Below are positions 1 through 6,024 of a DNA stretch of 8,594 nucleotides, piece after piece. Numbering within the stretch: the stretch's first letter is position 1; each line of letters opens with the position of its first letter. This DNA is from a virus (lineage: Duplodnaviria > Heunggongvirae > Uroviricota > Caudoviricetes). The position numbers and the translations under genes are program-made. The notes under the pieces were generated by a model. That model was not told the DNA's origin, searched no databases, and saw only the letters and a list, made by a program, of their open reading frames with translations. Location: positions 1 to 8,594 of the IMG/VR virus record IMGVR_UViG_2690316210_000003, one strand, 5' to 3'.

Positions 1-986
1 GGAAAATCGATACTGGAAAAACTCTAACTCGGTGGCCAGTTTTTGTTGACCACTTCAACGCGAATATGTCACTGGCAACGTTCTATAACACTGTCTTAGG
101 CGAAACCTTCGATGATCTTAACGAAGACCGCACAGCCGACGAACTGGAAACGCTGAAAACTGATATTAGCCTAGACAATATTCCTGATGATGTATTGGCT
201 CTGGTAGGTGGAGTTGACCAGCAAAAAGACCGTCTGGAATCTACCTTGCTGGGTATTTCTCGTAAAGGGATATGTGTAGTTGATCACCGATCATTCTATG
301 ATGTGAACTGCGAACGCCACGAATCACTAGCATATAACCAGCTTTACAACTTCCTGAAAGCGAAATTCTATACCCGATCCGGTGAACGAATCCCGATGTT
401 ATCTGCTTTCGTGGACTCATCGAACGGACGAGCTACAAACGTGATCTATCGATTCTGTAGTCGGTGGCAAAATCTAACCGCCATTAAAGGCGCAAGCAAT
501 GTTGATGCTCCAATCCTTCCGGTAAAAGACACAAGAACGGGCGGTTTTACCCTTAAAATTCTGGGCGTAAACAACCTTAAAACGATGATCCGTGAAATGA
601 TTAACCGGAACTTGAGAGATGGCGATCCTCACACTGTCTTCCAGATTGGTGACGTTCCTGATGACTACTGCGAGCAATTGCTATCTGAACAGTTGAAACG
701 GCAGGGTAATACCACACGTTGGGTAAAAGTTGGACAAGCACGAAACGAGGCTCTCGACTGCCTGGCTTATTCCTATGCTGCTTCTCGTCATGTGCTCAAT
801 AAAATGTCATGGGAAAAACTCGAAGCCATCAAAGATAGTTTGAACCGCGAACCAGAAGAATCCGTAAAAGCTCCTGAAACGCAATCTGACGAGCAAATCG
901 AAGAAACTAAGCCAATCACACGACCACAACGTCAAAACATCGCCAGACGCCCAAATAGAGGCCGTAGCTGGGTAACATCGTTCTAA
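1..986 (+). CDS. Probable terminase large subunit, C-terminal portion (5'-partial; gene starts upstream of window)
   Basis: The frame of the listed 66..986 ORF is open from the first full codon (nt 3) to TAA at 984-986. ATG at 66 has no Shine-Dalgarno upstream (aacgcgaatATG), so it is probably an internal Met. Placement directly upstream of the portal candidate fits a packaging ATPase/nuclease; the C-terminal RNEALDCLAYSYAA segment resembles lambda gpA-like terminases from memory only. Confidence 0.55.
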   Translation, partial: KIDTGKTLTRWPVFVDHFNANMSLATFYNTVLGETFDDLNEDRTADELETLKTDISLDNIPDDVLALVGGVDQQKDRLESTLLGISRKGICVVDHRSFYDVNCERHESLAYNQLYNFLKAKFYTRSGERIPMLSAFVDSSNGRATNVIYRFCSRWQNLTAIKGASNVDAPILPVKDTRTGGFTLKILGVNNLKTMIREMINRNLRDGDPHTVFQIGDVPDDYCEQLLSEQLKRQGNTTRWVKVGQARNEALDCLAYSYAASRHVLNKMSWEKLEAIKDSLNREPEESVKAPETQSDEQIEETKPITRPQRQNIARRPNRGRSWVTSF

Positions 987-992
987 TAACTC

Positions 993-1010
993 GCCGTCCT
1001 TCGGGGCGGC
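993..1010 (+). promoter_or_regulatory. GC-rich RNA stem-loop with UUCG tetraloop, no U-tract
   Basis: gccgtcc-ttcg-ggggcggc forms a 7-bp stem (one G-U pair) closing a UUCG loop, 7 nt after the terminase stop; the following sequence (ttactcc) is not U-rich, so it is not a classical intrinsic terminator. Confidence 0.45.
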
Positions 1011-1022
1011 TTACTCCTAAAT

Positions 1023-1042
1023 ATTGTTAATCCAATAACAAT
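1023..1042. repeat. 7-bp inverted repeat ATTGTTA-N6-TAACAAT upstream of the 164-aa gene
   Basis: Perfect 7-bp arms with a 6-nt spacer, read directly from the sequence; AT-rich, so chance occurrence is not excluded. Confidence 0.3.
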
Positions 1043-1046
1043 TAAA

Positions 1047-1058
1047 TAAGGGGTAATT
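1047..1058 (+). promoter_or_regulatory. Ribosome-binding site (ATAAGGGGTAAT motif)
   Basis: AAGGGG core 5 nt upstream of ATG 1059; same extended motif recurs at 1549, 5304 and 6012. Confidence 0.7.
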
Positions 1059-1553
1059 ATGAGTTTAGAACTAATTCCCTTAGTAATTCGTAAAGGCGAA
1101 AAAATCACGCTGGCGAATGAAGAGGGTGTAACAATTCAGGTAGGAAATAGTAAAGGTATCATTTATCAGGTTGATGATTCTCCGGCTAATCACGAGATTA
1201 AAACTCTCTCATTCGAGATAGGTAAATATACCATCGTAATAACTTTGGAAGAAGAACTGGTATCAATGCAGGAATTAACTGTTTTGCCAGTATTCGCCAA
1301 ACAATCCAAAAAAGAATATCTGCGGGAAACTATCGCCTTAATCGAGCAAGTTATTTTCGCCCGTTTATCTGGGGACGAAGCCGCATTATCTCAAATGACC
1401 GTGAAAGGAAATACTTTCGCCTATGAGTCATTGGCTGTTCTCCAGACTCTAAAAGTCGATTATGAACGTCAACTGTCTAAATTAATTCAAGCCGAACGAC
1501 GTAAACAGGGAATTAGCCCGATTAAAAATATCAAATTACGTCTTACGCGATAA
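1059..1553 (+). CDS. Hypothetical protein (164 aa), unknown function
   Basis: ATG with strong upstream RBS; stop TAA 1551-1553 overlaps the RBS of the next gene. No motif I can recognise. Sits between terminase and portal, where lambda has W, but is much longer than W. Confidence 0.8.
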   Translation: MSLELIPLVIRKGEKITLANEEGVTIQVGNSKGIIYQVDDSPANHEIKTLSFEIGKYTIVITLEEELVSMQELTVLPVFAKQSKKEYLRETIALIEQVIFARLSGDEAALSQMTVKGNTFAYESLAVLQTLKVDYERQLSKLIQAERRKQGISPIKNIKLRLTR

Positions 1554-1563
1554 GGGGTAAATC
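1549..1563 (+). promoter_or_regulatory. Ribosome-binding site overlapping upstream stop codon (ATAAGGGGTAAATC)
   Basis: TAA stop of the 164-aa gene (1551-1553) is the first three bases of the TAAGGGG element; ATG 1564 follows 6 nt after GGGG. Confidence 0.7.
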
Positions 1564-3075
1564 ATGTTTAATCTTTTTCGACGCAAAAAGGCGGTAGAAA
1601 CTCCAGTTAAAACTAATCACCGCCAGCAACAACCAAAAATTTTCATCGATAAGCAAGTAGAAAAATTTCAGAAAGACCTGAATACACGTTCATTGGGATT
1701 AGTTGGTGATCGCATTGATGGATCGCTTCAACAAGATACTATCACAGGAACCTTCAATAAGGCTCTCAAATCGAACGGTAAGCGCCTTTATGATCAGGGT
1801 CGTACTCTGGCTATAAACAATGCTGTAGGCAAGCGATACAAGCAGTATATCGTTGACCAAGTTGTTGGTACGGGGCTTGATCCGAAACCATCAATCGTTA
1901 AATCAAATGGCAAACTTGACACCGCACTGAATAAGCAGATCGAGAATGCTTTCTGGAAGTGGGCGCAGAGTGCTAAACGCTTCTCTCGCAACGGTCGCTT
2001 TAACTTCCGTGAAATGCTGGCAATGGCAGAATCTGAACGTGTTCAGGGTGGAGAATGCTTCATCGTTTTAACCAAAGAGAACAATGAGTTACAAGTTTCT
2101 ATTCTGTCTGCTGATAGGTGCGACTGGTCGCTTAGTCGTGAAATAAGCAAAGAACGTGCGATCTATCAGGGGATTGAGTATGACGTAGACACAATGCGCC
2201 CTGTAGCATACTGGTTTAGAAAAATCAATCTACTGACTCAGACCTACACTGGCGAAAATTATCGCGTAGATGCTTCTCAGGTGTGCCACTACTACCAGCC
2301 ACTGTGCGCGGAAAGTTTACGTGGTGTGACTGACTTCCTGCCAGTGATTAAGGATATTGCGCATCAAGAAGCGTTCCGCGAAACCGCGATCGTCCAGAAA
2401 CGTATTGCAGCTAGCTCTATGGGCTTTATTGAACGTCCGAAAGATTCTGGTGACGATTTTGATACTGGTGAAGAGGATGAACAATATCAAGCGCCGGAAG
2501 TAGTACAGGACTTTGCACCGGGTACTATTCAGGAATTGCCGGAAGGGGCAACAATCAAGAGCATTCAATCATCGCAAAATGGCGATGACTTTAACAGCTT
2601 CAATGATGCGATGTTCACTAGCGTATCAATGGGCTTAGGCGTGTTCAAACAGGGCTTAACAGGAGATTGTTCACAGATCAACTACTCAGCCGCACGTTTT
2701 GGGGAACTAACCCAGCGTAACCGCATTAAAGCACTGCAAAACAAATTGATTGAAACAGTGGTATTGCCAATTTTTGAAGCATATCTACGCCATTATTCCG
2801 CGCGTGGTATTGTTCCGATTCGTATTACTGCAATTCCGCATATTATCGATAATACAACTATTATTCGTCCGCGTTTTGAATCCGTCGATCCTATTAAAGA
2901 CGTAAACGCCGAGATTGCTTTAATTCAAAATGGTCTTAAATCACGTACTGCCGTTATATTAGAACGTGGTGATGATCCTGAAAAAGTATTCTCAGAGATT
3001 CAAGCCGAAAAGAGCGCACTAAATATTATCGTTGATGGCGAGGGTGAAGAAAAAAATTCCCCAGCCGATCCCTAA
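1564..3075 (+). CDS. Probable portal protein (503 aa)
   Basis: Size typical of portals, position between terminase and protease/capsid, acidic C-terminal tail (DGEGEEKNSPADP). Assignment is by synteny and size, not a verified homology hit. Confidence 0.6.
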   Translation: MFNLFRRKKAVETPVKTNHRQQQPKIFIDKQVEKFQKDLNTRSLGLVGDRIDGSLQQDTITGTFNKALKSNGKRLYDQGRTLAINNAVGKRYKQYIVDQVVGTGLDPKPSIVKSNGKLDTALNKQIENAFWKWAQSAKRFSRNGRFNFREMLAMAESERVQGGECFIVLTKENNELQVSILSADRCDWSLSREISKERAIYQGIEYDVDTMRPVAYWFRKINLLTQTYTGENYRVDASQVCHYYQPLCAESLRGVTDFLPVIKDIAHQEAFRETAIVQKRIAASSMGFIERPKDSGDDFDTGEEDEQYQAPEVVQDFAPGTIQELPEGATIKSIQSSQNGDDFNSFNDAMFTSVSMGLGVFKQGLTGDCSQINYSAARFGELTQRNRIKALQNKLIETVVLPIFEAYLRHYSARGIVPIRITAIPHIIDNTTIIRPRFESVDPIKDVNAEIALIQNGLKSRTAVILERGDDPEKVFSEIQAEKSALNIIVDGEGEEKNSPADP

Positions 3076-3083
3076 TAACCAAC

Positions 3084-3100
3084 GGGGGCGCAATGCCCCC
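3084..3100 (+). promoter_or_regulatory. GC-rich stem-loop (GGGGGC/GCCCCC), no U-tract
   Basis: gggggc-gcaat-gccccc, 6-bp G:C stem 8 nt after the portal stop and 20 nt before ATG 3121; followed by aattaatt rather than a T-run. Confidence 0.45.
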
Positions 3101-3108
3101 AATTAATT

Positions 3109-3120
3109 AAAGGTGATTAA
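3109..3120 (+). promoter_or_regulatory. Ribosome-binding site (AAAGGTGATTAA)
   Basis: AGGTGA 4 nt upstream of ATG 3121. Confidence 0.65.
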
Positions 3121-3630
3121 ATGCTTAAATTTCGCCGCGAACTTAACGGTTACGGTGGAGTTATTAACGAAGGGCATACTGATCAATACGAATTTGAAAT
3201 TGCTTTCTCCAGTGAACAGCCTTATCAGCGCCAATTCTGGGATGAGCAAAATCAAGAAATGGTGGTATTAGATGAAATTCTGGTACATACACCGGAAGCG
3301 GTTGATCTGTCTCGTCTGAATAATAACGCTCCGTTGCTGTTTAATCATAATTTCGATAATCATTTAGGTGTCGTTTGTAACGCTCGAATCGATGCGGATA
3401 AAGTAGGCCGTGCGACCGTTAGATTCTCTAAGCATGGCACTTTGGCTAATGATATTCGTAATAAAGTCATTGAAGGTACGATGGAAAAAATTTCTGTCGG
3501 CTATGACATTAAAGAATATCACATCGATTATGCCAAAGGACAATTGATTGTTACTAAGTTTGTTCCTTTCGAATTAAGTTTTGTTACGGTCCCGGCGGAC
3601 GATTCGGTCGGTTTAAATCGCTCTCTAAAT
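3121..3630 (+). other. HK97-type prohead protease domain (approximate bounds)
   Basis: Candidate catalytic His76 and Ser125 are 49 residues apart; I recall the same spacing for HK97 gp4 (His65/Ser114), unverified. Confidence 0.5.
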
Positions 3631-5124
3631 ACTATCACAGTTAATTTGGAGGCTAAACGCGATATGACTAAAGAACAAATTGAAGAAATCAAAGAAGAAC
3701 AAGAATCCGCTCAGGTTGAAGAAACTCCGGTAGAAGAAATTAAAGAATCGGAAGTTGAAGAAACTCAAGAGCGCCAAGTTGAAGAGAATAAAGAAGATGA
3801 AAATCTCGAAGACGGAAAAGACGCTGAACATCCTGAAAGTGTTGATGATGATAGTTCAACTGTTCGGGAAACAGAAGAAGTAAAAGAAGAACGTGAAGCT
3901 GCTCCGGTTGAAGAAGAAAAAACCGAGGAAGTGGCTGAACGTTCCGAAGAAGACGAATTAGAAATCCGCGAAATTGCACGCGAGCTAAATATTAACGACG
4001 AAGAATTAGAACGCGCATTGGCAGTTAAAGACATGACGCCGGAAGCATTCCGCACTAAGGCACTAAATAACATTACCAATGCTCAACGTATTAACGAACA
4101 ACAAATTAAGGACTCTAAAATGGAAAAAACTTTTGACCTGAACAACGTAATTCGCTCTCTGGTAGATGGTGAAGCTCTGGGTGCTCACGAAGCCGAGTTT
4201 TCTGCAATGGCTGCTACTGCAACTATGCAGCGTGGTCGTGCTGCTCGTGGTGGCTCTGTATTCGTTCCGGCTGCTGCTATGCGTGCTGCTGCTGCTGGTA
4301 ACACCAAAGCTGACCTGACTGCTATCACTGACGAAAAACTGATGACTGAATCCTACATCGAAATGCTGATGCCGGAATCCGTTCTGGGTCGTCTGGGTGT
4401 GACTGTTTATAGTGGCTTGACTGCTCCGACCGCTATTCCAAAAATGACTAAATCCAGCGTTGACGCTTTCGGCTTCGTTGATGAAAACGGTGCTGCACCG
4501 GAAGGCAAAGCTGAATTTGCAAACGTGAAACTGTCTCCTAAGACTTTTGCTGGTGGGAACCCGATCAGCCGCCAGAGCATCAAAACCGTACCGGGCATCG
4601 CTACCCTGATCACTGATCACATCAACCAGGCTGTTCGCATCAAACTGGAACAACTGATTCTGTCTGACAAAGCTAACGATCGTGGTCCGGCTGGTCTGGT
4701 TAAACAACTGGTAGACGCTAGCCGCGTTGAGAAGAAAGCTGCTTTCACCTACAAAGACTTCCTGAAAGAAATTGCTAAACTGACCGACGCTGGCGTTCCG
4801 GCACAGTCCATCAAGTTTGCAATGAGCGGTGCAACTGCTGCTGAACTGGAATCTACCCTGAAAGATAACGGCGTTTCTGGTTATATCATCGAAAACGGCA
4901 AACTGGCTGGTTACGAAGTAGTTACTTCTGGTGTTATTCCGGCAGACCACATCGTTCTGGGTGACTTCTCCGGTATTACTATCGGTGAGTGGGGCGGTCT
5001 GGAACTGGATATGGACGACACCACCTACCGCGCACAGTCCGCTATCGTTCCGCGTATCTGGGTAGATCTGGATTATGTAGTTACCCAGCCGGAAGCTCTG
5101 AAAGTTCTTCACGTCTCCGAATGA
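3121..5124 (+). CDS. Prohead protease - scaffold-like acidic segment - major capsid protein fusion ORF (667 aa)
   Basis: Single uninterrupted ORF. The N-terminal ~170 aa carry HK97-type prohead protease (S78/U35-like) motifs as I remember them: LLFNHNFDNHLG (His76), KISVGYDI (Ser125), ELSFVTVPADD. Residues ~182-333 are Glu-rich and low-complexity, like a scaffold/delta domain. Residues 334-667 are Ala/Gly-rich with strongly optimised codons, typical of a major capsid protein. Confidence 0.75.
   Translation: MLKFRRELNGYGGVINEGHTDQYEFEIAFSSEQPYQRQFWDEQNQEMVVLDEILVHTPEAVDLSRLNNNAPLLFNHNFDNHLGVVCNARIDADKVGRATVRFSKHGTLANDIRNKVIEGTMEKISVGYDIKEYHIDYAKGQLIVTKFVPFELSFVTVPADDSVGLNRSLNTITVNLEAKRDMTKEQIEEIKEEQESAQVEETPVEEIKESEVEETQERQVEENKEDENLEDGKDAEHPESVDDDSSTVRETEEVKEEREAAPVEEEKTEEVAERSEEDELEIREIARELNINDEELERALAVKDMTPEAFRTKALNNITNAQRINEQQIKDSKMEKTFDLNNVIRSLVDGEALGAHEAEFSAMAATATMQRGRAARGGSVFVPAAAMRAAAAGNTKADLTAITDEKLMTESYIEMLMPESVLGRLGVTVYSGLTAPTAIPKMTKSSVDAFGFVDENGAAPEGKAEFANVKLSPKTFAGGNPISRQSIKTVPGIATLITDHINQAVRIKLEQLILSDKANDRGPAGLVKQLVDASRVEKKAAFTYKDFLKEIAKLTDAGVPAQSIKFAMSGATAAELESTLKDNGVSGYIIENGKLAGYEVVTSGVIPADHIVLGDFSGITIGEWGGLELDMDDTTYRAQSAIVPRIWVDLDYVVTQPEALKVLHVSE
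3664..4119 (+). other. Glu-rich scaffold/delta-like segment with in-frame internal ATG at 3664
   Basis: About 150 residues dominated by E/K/V with 39-bp periodic GTTGAAGAA(ACT) repeats (3715, 3754, 3778); GGAGG at 3648-3652 lies 11 nt upstream of the in-frame ATG 3664. Confidence 0.45.
4120..5124 (+). other. Major capsid protein domain (HK97-fold candidate) with in-frame internal ATG at 4120
   Basis: AAGGA at 4108-4112 lies 7 nt upstream of ATG 4120 (MEKTFDL...). From here to the stop, Leu is almost exclusively CTG and Arg CGT, with Gly GGT and Ala GCT favoured, unlike the upstream part of the same ORF. Confidence 0.6.
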
Positions 5125-5146
5125 ACTAGCTTAGAACCTTCTGAAC

Positions 5147-5167
5147 CTTCCCCCGATTTGGGGGAAG
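5147..5167 (+). promoter_or_regulatory. Perfect 8-bp stem-loop (CTTCCCCC-gattt-GGGGGAAG) 22 nt downstream of the capsid stop
   Basis: Read directly; followed by purine-rich sequence, no U-tract. Confidence 0.5.
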
Positions 5168-5261
5168 AAAATCTGATTCCATCTCAGGAAGAAGAAGTTC
5201 AAGAGGTTACGGCGAAAGCCACAGTTAAAAAAGAACGTAAGACTAAAGCAAAATAATAATT

Positions 5262-5288
5262 AGCCCTGCCTAACGGTGGGGCTTTTTT
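5262..5288 (+). terminator. Rho-independent terminator after the capsid gene
   Basis: agccctgcc-taac-ggtggggct forms a 9-bp stem (two G-U pairs) followed immediately by TTTTT(T); located after the TAATAA double stop. Confidence 0.7.
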
Positions 5289-5303
5289 GTATGTAAATAC
5301 TCC

Positions 5304-5318
5304 ATAAAGGGGGTAACT
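5304..5318 (+). promoter_or_regulatory. Ribosome-binding site (ATAAAGGGGGTAACT)
   Basis: GGGGG 5 nt upstream of ATG 5319; begins only ~15 nt after the terminator U-tract. Confidence 0.7.
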
Positions 5319-5609
5319 ATGTTCAAATTATCAGAATCACAATTATCAAGAATGTTTAAGAGTGCTCCTGTATTTGTGGTGGAAGGTGGTAAATCAATTC
5401 GTGCTTACCATGAAATTACTACTACCGACGAACAAGGGGTAATTACAGAATCAGAATTTCTATTTTGTCGTGAGGGAGACTTAAATCAGGGTGATGTTGT
5501 CATTGTAGACGGTGAACGCTTCAAAGTTCAATACGTTAAGCGCAATGGTGATAATACTTCTGATTGCTTTATTGCTCGTGCAGGGGGTACACATGCTCGC
5601 TACCGTTAA
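5319..5609 (+). CDS. Small virion protein (96 aa), possible head-tail adaptor/head-closure protein
   Basis: Strong RBS; the C-terminal GDVVIVDGERFKVQYV segment resembles the end of head-tail joining proteins as I recall them. Position is immediately downstream of the capsid gene. Function tentative. Confidence 0.75.
   Translation: MFKLSESQLSRMFKSAPVFVVEGGKSIRAYHEITTTDEQGVITESEFLFCREGDLNQGDVVIVDGERFKVQYVKRNGDNTSDCFIARAGGTHARYR
5582..5592 (+). promoter_or_regulatory. Ribosome-binding site embedded in the 3' coding end of the 96-aa gene (AGGGGGTACAC)
   Basis: GGGGGTA + 3 nt + ATG 5593, same geometry as the RBSs at 1059, 5319 and 6025. Confidence 0.6.
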
Positions 5610-6015
5610 TAATATGCCGAGACTGAAAATCAAACGCGCCTTGCAAGATATTATCGAACAAGATTTAGGTCTGGCTTTAAACGTAGAACAAACTCAGCAA
5701 GGCTTTAGTGATGACGTGGTTTGTTGGATTACTGGCATGAATGAAACTTATACGCGTGTTCGTGGTGGTAATGCAATGCAAGCTGAATGCGTTATCGAAA
5801 TGCAGTTGTATTCTCAGAATCATGAAACAAAAATCCATGAGGGTATTTGCCAGATAATCCAGATTCAGCCGGATAACCCACGATTTAAAGATTTGGGCTT
5901 CTCTATTTCAGATATCACTCCAGTAGCTTCTAATACCGATTATGACGATGATTCTAGTGATGGGGGTATCGTTGGGACACTTAGCCTTAAATTTTCTTAT
6001 CTAGCGCGTTTTTAA
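5593..6015 (+). CDS. Hypothetical structural protein (141 aa from ATG 5593), possible connector/tail-completion protein
   Basis: Same frame as the listed 5512..6015 ORF, but 5512 is a GTG with no RBS inside the upstream gene; ATG 5593 has the conserved RBS. Overlaps the upstream gene by 17 nt. ATG 5614 is an alternative start without a recognisable RBS. Confidence 0.7.
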   Translation: MLATVNNMPRLKIKRALQDIIEQDLGLALNVEQTQQGFSDDVVCWITGMNETYTRVRGGNAMQAECVIEMQLYSQNHETKIHEGICQIIQIQPDNPRFKDLGFSISDITPVASNTDYDDDSSDGGIVGTLSLKFSYLARF

Positions 6016-6024
6016 GGGGTAATA
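6012..6024 (+). promoter_or_regulatory. Ribosome-binding site overlapping upstream stop (TTAAGGGGTAATA)
   Basis: TAA stop 6013-6015 forms the start of TAAGGGG; ATG 6025 lies 5 nt after GGGG. Confidence 0.7.

Follow-up and report, generated by a model that had tools for sequence, protein, structure and literature searches.

Conserved internal start signal in a phage gene for a protease–scaffold–capsid fusion suggests a nested, protease-less product

How does a phage that joins its maturation protease to its major capsid protein in a single gene avoid packing a protease with every capsid subunit? The question is raised by a stretch of 8,594 nucleotides (nt), hereafter the window, from a virus of the Caudoviricetes (Duplodnaviria; Heunggongvirae; Uroviricota), which corresponds to positions 1 to 8,594 of IMG/VR record IMGVR_UViG_2690316210_000003. 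The window contains a complete gene (3121–5124) with an ATG start and no internal stops, which encodes a protein of 667 amino acids (aa; 73.7 kDa) where a prohead protease, a scaffold-like part and a capsid protein follow one another in one open reading frame (ORF). The gene, its parts and signals and the hairpins that flank it lie on the plus strand. An identical protein is on record for Shigella sonnei (WP_052974392.1), where its annotation goes no further than "phage major capsid family protein". Database labels that name the gene only as a major capsid protein hide the protease, and the mature capsid protein takes up less than half of the ORF. Here the parts of the fused protein were delimited, and a Shine-Dalgarno (SD) sequence and ATG located just after the protease-coding part were followed across related fusions. 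The conservation of this signal suggests that a nested, protease-less scaffold–capsid product is made in addition to the full-length precursor.

The N-terminal part of the protein (aa 20–165; 3178–3615) is a prohead protease domain of the S78 or HK97 gp4 type, for which Pfam profile Peptidase_S78 (PF04586) matched aa 40–162 with an E-value of 1.8e-10 and 41.6 bits, above the gathering cut-off of 21. A search of PDB sequences with the protease part matched none, and a fold search returned the assemblin-like fold of capsid proteases. The predicted catalytic residues are His76 (codon CAT, 3346–3348) and Ser125 (codon TCT, 3493–3495), the latter in an S-V-G-Y motif. Alignment places them opposite H65 and S114 of HK97 gp4 (the serine by both blastp and hhalign), with 'FNH' facing 'FFNH65', 'SVGY' facing 'S114VGF' and the same spacing of 49 residues in both proteins. 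Both residues are invariant in alignments of 28 and 77 sequences, which include fusions only 24–29% identical to the window protein. By its sequence, the domain is thus an S78 serine protease with His76 and Ser125 as catalytic residues, predicted to act on the capsid and scaffold parts.

At the other end of the protein, Pfam profile Phage_capsid (PF05065) matched aa 410–663 (E 3.2e-25; 89.5 bits, gathering cut-off 24.2) over profile positions 11–278 of 280. The capsid chain of roseophage vB_DshS-R4C (hereafter R4C; 8gta_A) aligned by sequence with aa 409–661 (E 3.5e-24) and was also the best match of the structure model in Foldseek (E 3e-19; target template-modelling (TM) score 0.71). Many other HK97-fold capsid proteins matched, and HK97 chains themselves gave target TM scores of 0.61–0.73 (0.65–0.73 for 1ohg, 2ft1, 3e8k and 8cfa). 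The model of this region had a predicted local distance difference test (pLDDT) value of mostly 80–97. The C-terminal part is therefore an HK97-fold capsid protein, with the fold starting at about aa 389–411; the mature protein (aa 389–667; 4285–5121) would have a mass of about 29.6 kDa if cut after R388. The Lys169–Asn356 chainmail cross-link is a trait of HK97 itself and not of the fold family; HK97 K169 aligned with A459, in an alignment of only 18% identity, so that chainmail of the HK97 type is not indicated. Combined, the significant matches to Peptidase_S78 and Phage_capsid and the predicted structure of the C-terminal domain bear out an earlier note on this DNA, which had proposed an S78-like protease with His76 and Ser125 at a distance of 49 residues and, in the same frame, a capsid-type domain. 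That note placed the start of the capsid domain at aa 334; this boundary has to be moved, since aa 276–388 form a separate helical module.

Between protease and capsid fold lie two distinct segments. The first (aa 183–275; 3667–3945) is an acidic low-complexity tract with pLDDT below 50; disorder is predicted over aa 169–271, and aa 181–300 consist of 36% Glu with a net charge of -38. The Glu-rich segment of the earlier note is thus real, with a length of about 120 residues and not the approximately 150 that were proposed. In the alignment the tract is an insertion (columns 401–480), specific to the enterobacterial lineage relative to most homologs. Tandem units of 15 and 24 nt are found within it at 3710–3796, a pattern suggesting that slippage or duplication expands the Glu-rich insertion in this lineage. 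The second segment (aa 276–388; 3946–4284) is a conserved helical, scaffold-like module resembling a delta domain. Helices were predicted at 276–288, 293–301 and 307–331 with pLDDT 83–93, followed by further helices to about residue 391, and the positions conserved across the family include I282, A358, F360, A367, P383 and R388. The region equivalent to aa 276–388 is not in the R4C virion chain; the module belongs to the scaffold part that is removed, not to the capsid fold. As a separate observation, 3600–3915 was nearly invariant among six Escherichia coli/Shigella relatives (3–6% variable columns, 20% overall), while the parts of the same gene flanking 3601–3915 had 20–40% variable columns; such a mosaic suggests recent recombination within the capsid gene.

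How the capsid part would be released can be approached through R4C, whose gene 006 codes for 629 aa. The deposited virion chain comprises aa 362–629, the C-terminal 268 aa, and forms a T=7 capsid of 415 subunits (R4C structure paper). Neither precursor processing nor the missing 361 residues are mentioned in the R4C structure paper, and processing is not mentioned in a marine-phage proteomics paper. The difference between the 629-aa gene and the 268-aa chain nonetheless fits the removal of an N-terminal part and, by analogy, supports the proteolytic release of the capsid domain that the earlier note had proposed. The predicted cleavage zone spans aa 388–399 (4282–4317), with R388|A389 as best guess. 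At least 90% of the sequences share R388, which lies 10 residues upstream of L399, the residue equivalent to the first one of the R4C virion chain; at the hhalign offset, S104 of HK97 maps to about aa 394. By analogy, we infer that cleavage takes place between R388 and L399, yielding a mature protein of 28.7–29.6 kDa. Two points count against this position: it is derived by analogy, and the deposited R4C chain may start merely at the first modelled residue and not at the true N-terminus. When the family profile was compared with HK97 gp4 and gp5 by hhalign, alignment was confined to the catalytic and capsid cores, so that neither the HK97 cleavage site nor the C-terminal tail of gp4 could be mapped onto the linker. 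The helical module may resemble the C-terminal segment of gp4.

The start signals of the gene were then compared. The full-length start codon is preceded by the SD-like sequence AAGGTGAT (3110–3117), with a duplex energy of -4.3 kcal/mol against the anti-SD. Just downstream of the protease domain, an SD core GGAGG (3648–3652), read in frame as part of Leu-Glu-Ala codons, lies 11 nt before the ATG of Met182 (3664–3666). The duplex of this core with the 3' end of 16S rRNA has an energy of -9.3 kcal/mol, and the SD of M182 is the strongest among those of all in-frame ATG, GTG and TTG codons of the ORF. The gene thus carries an in-frame start with its own ribosome-binding site (RBS) downstream of the protease domain, from which two polypeptides are predicted: the 667-aa precursor and a scaffold–capsid protein of 486 aa and 53.1 kDa. 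Most homologs in the alignment have a Met just after the protease domain, often behind Glu or Gly codons, in a linker that is otherwise unconserved. Two close relatives have GGGGG in place of GGAGG, which changes a Glu to Gly and leaves a pairing energy of -8.4 kcal/mol. Added conservation of SD and ATG among the six close E. coli relatives proved to be uninformative, since 3600–3915 as a whole is nearly invariant in them. M334 was considered as a further internal start (SD -5.8 kcal/mol) and rejected, as homologs do not share this Met. There was no support for a promoter inside the gene that would drive the short form (3 promoter-like sites versus 3.6 expected); the short product would come from the same mRNA.

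Conservation of the signal was evaluated in 80 related viral loci, whose fused ORFs were extracted and dereplicated at 60% identity to give 38 lineages. A linker Met, defined as an ATG-encoded Met 3–90 residues after the 'PAD' motif, was present in 35 of them. The first linker Met had a median SD energy of -5.6 kcal/mol (n = 35), compared with -2.0 for other in-frame ATGs (n = 417) and -1.9 for out-of-frame ATGs (n = 675; Mann-Whitney p = 5e-9 and 1e-8, respectively); energies of -5.5 kcal/mol or lower were reached by 66% of linker Mets versus 8–10% of other ATGs. Because the linkers are purine-rich, every linker position was taken as a pseudo-start in a local-composition control. In 24 of 35 lineages the real site ranked within the top 10% of its own linker (binomial p = 1.4e-16). 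An SD core was located 4–11 nt upstream, with a mode of 7–8, of 26 of the 35 linker Mets (74%) versus 6% of 1,085 background ATGs (p = 5e-25). Folding of the mRNA was weak at the linker site (-5.2 versus -10.8 kcal/mol), a difference that low-complexity sequence alone would yield. As a positive control, the Nu3 start inside lambda gene C ranked second of the 17 in-frame ATGs; the ATG of codon 309 of the same gene (lambda 1343–1345) had an SD of -10.8 kcal/mol, stronger than that of the known Nu3 start (-6.9). In the tripartite gene of Gifsy-2, whose protease is of the ClpP type, the best combination of SD and ATG was found at codon 221 (23131–23133), just after the protease domain. An internal SD and ATG are thus conserved across the lineages of S78–capsid fusions.

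The internal signal was comparable to the genes' own 5' starts, with family medians of -5.8 and -6.6 kcal/mol, respectively. The notion that the internal RBS is generally stronger than the 5' one was discarded, since it holds for the window and not for the family, and the major product can therefore not be deduced from these strengths. Indeed, the internal SD equalled or exceeded the 5' SD in only 10 of 29 cases, and this is one of several points that weigh against a second product. The linker Met is missing in 3 of the 38 lineages, and about one quarter of those that have it show no recognizable SD. In the window itself, 11 nt separate SD and ATG, which is near the upper limit of functional spacings. 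Purine-rich, low-complexity linkers inflate SD-like matches and lower the folding energy, of which the local control deals with the first effect and not with the second, and lineages separated at 60% identity are not fully independent. The short form is annotated in no public record examined for the family, and the case for internal initiation is at present one of sequence statistics.

The lineages devoid of a linker Met or an SD fit the main rival explanation, which we consider less likely: only the full-length 667-aa precursor would be made, with protease, scaffold and capsid protein at 1:1:1, and the SD and ATG would be the non-functional relic of an ancestral boundary between a protease gene and a capsid gene, or an SD-like pause site that gives the protease domain time to fold during translation. 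This is also the simplest reading of the annotation, as all records call a single coding sequence. A relic is conceivable because the protease and capsid genes of HK97 are adjacent and separate, so that a fusion could have kept the old start of the capsid gene. In addition, a cargo of 415 × 44 kDa, roughly estimated at 18 MDa, would be possible, if crowded, in a T=7 prohead. However, a relic in an unconserved low-complexity linker should decay, whereas about 70% of lineages, at a protein identity of only 25–30%, have kept a Met with an SD core at canonical spacing (mode 7–8 nt). A pause site, for its part, would need no ATG at the correct distance. Finally, the Gifsy-2 gene shows the same pattern of SD and ATG with an unrelated type of protease.

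The explanation that we favour, with moderate confidence, is a three-part precursor that matures its own prohead, together with a second product initiated at M182. The gene of a temperate siphophage of about 38 kb, integrated in E. coli/Shigella chromosomes, would be translated into a single 73.7-kDa precursor composed of the S78 protease, the scaffold (acidic disordered tract and helical module) and the HK97-fold capsid protein. The internal RBS (GGAGG at 3648–3652, ATG at 3664) on the same mRNA would probably direct the synthesis of a co-terminal 53.1-kDa scaffold–capsid protein without protease, the equivalent of an HK97 gp5 whose delta domain would span about 207 residues. Precursors would assemble via their C-terminal capsid domains, placing scaffold and protease inside the prohead, and the long and short forms would co-assemble through the capsid domain that they share. 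The protease would then cut near aa 388–399 and degrade the internal parts, leaving a shell of capsid protein of about 29–30 kDa, and the relative use of the two starts would determine the dose of protease per prohead. The idea of the earlier note that protease is built into the prohead agrees with a single precursor; that every subunit carries it does not follow, since the conserved RBS of M182 suggests a protease-less product too. A wider claim, that S78 protease–scaffold–capsid fusions are in general nested two-product genes and that Gifsy-2-type ClpP fusions may have got there independently, is put forward on sequence grounds as a tentative possibility that we would not yet bet on.

Should this hold, hundreds of phage lineages would control the amount of maturation protease per capsid by means of two co-terminal proteins from one gene, and the question of how a 1:1 fusion avoids packing about 415 proteases in each shell would be answered. 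It would give tailed phages and herpesviruses, whose proteases already have a fold in common, one more trait in parallel, and extend the logic of lambda C/Nu3 and of UL26/UL26.5 to genes with the capsid protein in both products. It would also bear on the design of HK97-type capsids, on cargo loading and on the reading of capsid genes in metagenomes.

These systems resemble the proposed arrangement in part. In lambda C/Nu3, where the lambda record annotates nu3 inside C, and in herpesvirus UL26/UL26.5, a long protease-bearing form and a short protease-less form share their C-terminus; for the window this is predicted only. The herpesvirus protease has the same assemblin-like fold as that of the window, and the short form of the herpesvirus is about 10-fold more abundant than the long one (PMC11565193). 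By contrast to the window, where the capsid protein would be in both products, the shared C-terminal part in lambda and herpesviruses is scaffold only and the capsid gene is separate. Moreover, the herpesvirus short form comes from a separate transcript, while that of the window would depend on the predicted internal RBS.

HK97 gp4 and gp5 share with the window protein the protease family, the catalytic residues and the capsid fold, and in HK97 too an N-terminal scaffold-like segment is cut off the capsid protein by the protease, as proposed here. The two differ in that HK97 has two separate genes and the window one, and in the length of the delta domain, 103 aa in HK97 and about 207 aa in the window (M182 to R388). 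R388 resembles the basic P1 residue of the K103|S104 site of HK97 gp5.

Closest are R4C gp006 and the other fusions of PHROG 617. They have the same domain order in one gene, a similar length and the same invariant His and Ser, and their helical module and capsid domain are homologous to those of the window protein. The gene neighbourhood also agrees, with lambda-type large terminase, head-tail joining protein, portal and fusion in this order. The fusions of isolated phages are only 25–31% identical to that of the window, with the exception of phage DCP80 (44%). The acidic tract aa 183–275 is an extra element of the window protein, and host and prophage backbone are different. In Gifsy-2, a protease, a central scaffold-like region and a capsid protein are likewise encoded by one ORF, of about 690 aa, in a lambda-like head module, and the strongest internal SD and ATG follow just after the protease domain, as in the window gene. 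The Gifsy-2 protease is ClpP-like (annotated as Clp protease) and that of the window S78, which makes the N-terminal parts analogous, not homologous. Gifsy-2 reportedly uses a decoration protein similar to lambda gpD; a gpD-like protein was not detected in the window.

A second rival explanation concerns the activity of the protease. The N-terminal domain might be an inactive, protease-like scaffold or cargo, with processing carried out by a host protease or another phage protease. The low sequence identity to HK97 gp4 would agree with this, and so would the result for NCBIfam TIGR01543 (HK97 family prohead protease, equivalog), which the domain matched with 32.7 bits, below the cut-off of 59; the domain is thus related to TIGR01543 and not an equivalog by NCBI's criterion. 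We regard this explanation as very unlikely, because besides the catalytic His and Ser, residues H56 and E151 and the motif P158-A159-D160 are invariant across the S78 fusion family, which would be unexpected in a degenerate enzyme. In addition, no second protease gene turned up among the head genes annotated in the window or in a homologous prophage of E. coli STEC1575.

The one-gene architecture of protease, scaffold and capsid is already established and catalogued, and the gene of the window is a diverged member of this family. PHROG 617 ("major head protein"), whose profile derives from fusion proteins of full length, matched end to end (E 4e-91; aa 21–665 versus profile positions 24–623 of 626). 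PHROG 4523 bears the name "major head and protease protein", and product names at JGI also record the protease–capsid architecture. NCBIfam NF045541 (scaf_prot_MCP2, prohead protease/major capsid protein fusion protein) was matched with 124 bits, below its cut-off of 525, and only aa 21–346 aligned; the architecture is that of NF045541, and the protein lies outside this narrowly defined model. The phrase "capsid and protease fusion" is used for actinobacteriophages in SEA-PHAGES genome announcements, and a "tripartite capsid gene" of the Salmonella phage Gifsy-2 was described in 2010 (Effantin et al. 2010, Virology 402:355; as cited in PMC8538268). Regarding internal initiation or nested genes in S78–capsid fusions, no report was found; access to the literature was limited and this is weak evidence of absence. 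The internal ribosome-binding site may thus be the only new element.

An exhaustive search returned 6,376 clusters at 50% identity with E ≤1e-3, of which 436 had E ≤1e-30. Nearly all of the best 150 of these clusters listed are 560–760 aa long and were matched at both ends. Near-copies of the window protein (94–98% identity; 666–669 aa) made up more than 120 clusters at 90% identity among the matches listed, from independent E. coli/Shigella assemblies, and an unbroken frame of at least 587 codons was present in 83 of 83 related loci examined. This recurrence in independent assemblies indicates that the single frame is real and not a sequencing artefact, and it rules out an assembly artefact or a pseudogene fusion; the continuous ORF of the earlier note held up, with no stop or frameshift in hundreds of independent copies. 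The one-gene layout is also found in isolated phages, among them R4C, the Rhodobacter RcA and RcC phages, the FoX phages of Xanthomonas, Mica (Burkholderia), Mano (Achromobacter), ECO1230-10 (E. coli) and phiHAP-1 (Halomonas); identity to the protein of any isolated phage is at most 44%. A defective fusion without function, created by loss of a stop codon in a decaying prophage or by an assembly error, might be suspected because decay is common in prophages and the window derives from one found in bacterial assemblies, but it can be dismissed almost entirely given this recurrence, the presence of the fusion in plaque-forming phages (R4C, the RcC cluster, FoX phages, Mica, Mano, ECO1230-10 and phiHAP-1), the T=7 structure solved for the capsid that the R4C gene builds, and the complete appearance of the surrounding prophage.

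The 44% identity is that of Escherichia phage DCP80 (PQ671644; 141 kb), which is classified in the Tevenvirinae. Positions 1–13765 of this record carry a lambda-like terminase, a portal and the fused protease–capsid module, with terminase, portal and fusion all labelled hypothetical. The record may be a chimeric assembly of two phages.

Terminator-like hairpins flank the module both in HK97 and in the window. Upstream, a GC-rich hairpin (CGGGGGC-GCAAT-GCCCCCA; 3083–3101) lies between the portal stop codon and the start of the fused gene. It has no T-run on the coding strand and scores only as a terminator-like site of the minus strand; the HK97 record carries a 'putative terminator' (3309–3335) at the equivalent place. 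The hairpin could be an attenuator or an mRNA-stability element. After the capsid gene, a hairpin (5262–5283) with a T-run resembles an intrinsic terminator (5262–5293 in all) and is located in the 194-nt gap 5125–5318; HK97 likewise has an annotated terminator after gp5. The post-capsid gap is the most variable stretch among the six close relatives, with 47–71% variable columns across 5086–5265 versus 20% overall.

The fused gene is part of a lambda-like order of head genes. Upstream of it are a large terminase with gpA nuclease domain (66–986), a head-tail joining protein (1059–1553) and, directly before the fusion, a portal of the lambda family (1564–3075, with its stop codon at 3075). Downstream are an FII/head-closure-like protein (5319–5609), a protein with weak resemblance to major tail proteins (6025–6858) and a tail-fibre gene (from about 6935 to 8594), which continues past the end of the window. 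The homologous region in E. coli STEC1575 is a prophage of about 38 kb inserted at ycdX that comprises terminase, portal, serine recombinase, a tail tube gene, tail tip and lysis genes, with a 2.5-kb ORF in the position of the tape measure. By gene content, it looks like a complete temperate siphophage.

Two further observations concern the genes downstream of the fusion. A GTG-start ORF (5512–6015), taken from a mechanical listing, overlaps the FII-like gene by about 100 nt. In RefSeq the homolog is annotated with 423 nt and shares just 17 nt with the gene before it, and the true start is therefore probably downstream of 5512; the protein of this ORF had no family matches. The homolog of the tail-fibre gene in STEC1575 is 3.6 kb long, with the head-completion genes on one side and the tail tube gene on the other. 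The tail-fibre gene contains repeated 'TxTVxANKxDADxKIxxLT' units, and nt 7799–8556 within it show 85% DNA identity to the distal long tail fibre gene (gene 37) of RB49, a T-even phage; a receptor-binding module appears to be common to this temperate siphophage and to lytic T4-like phages.

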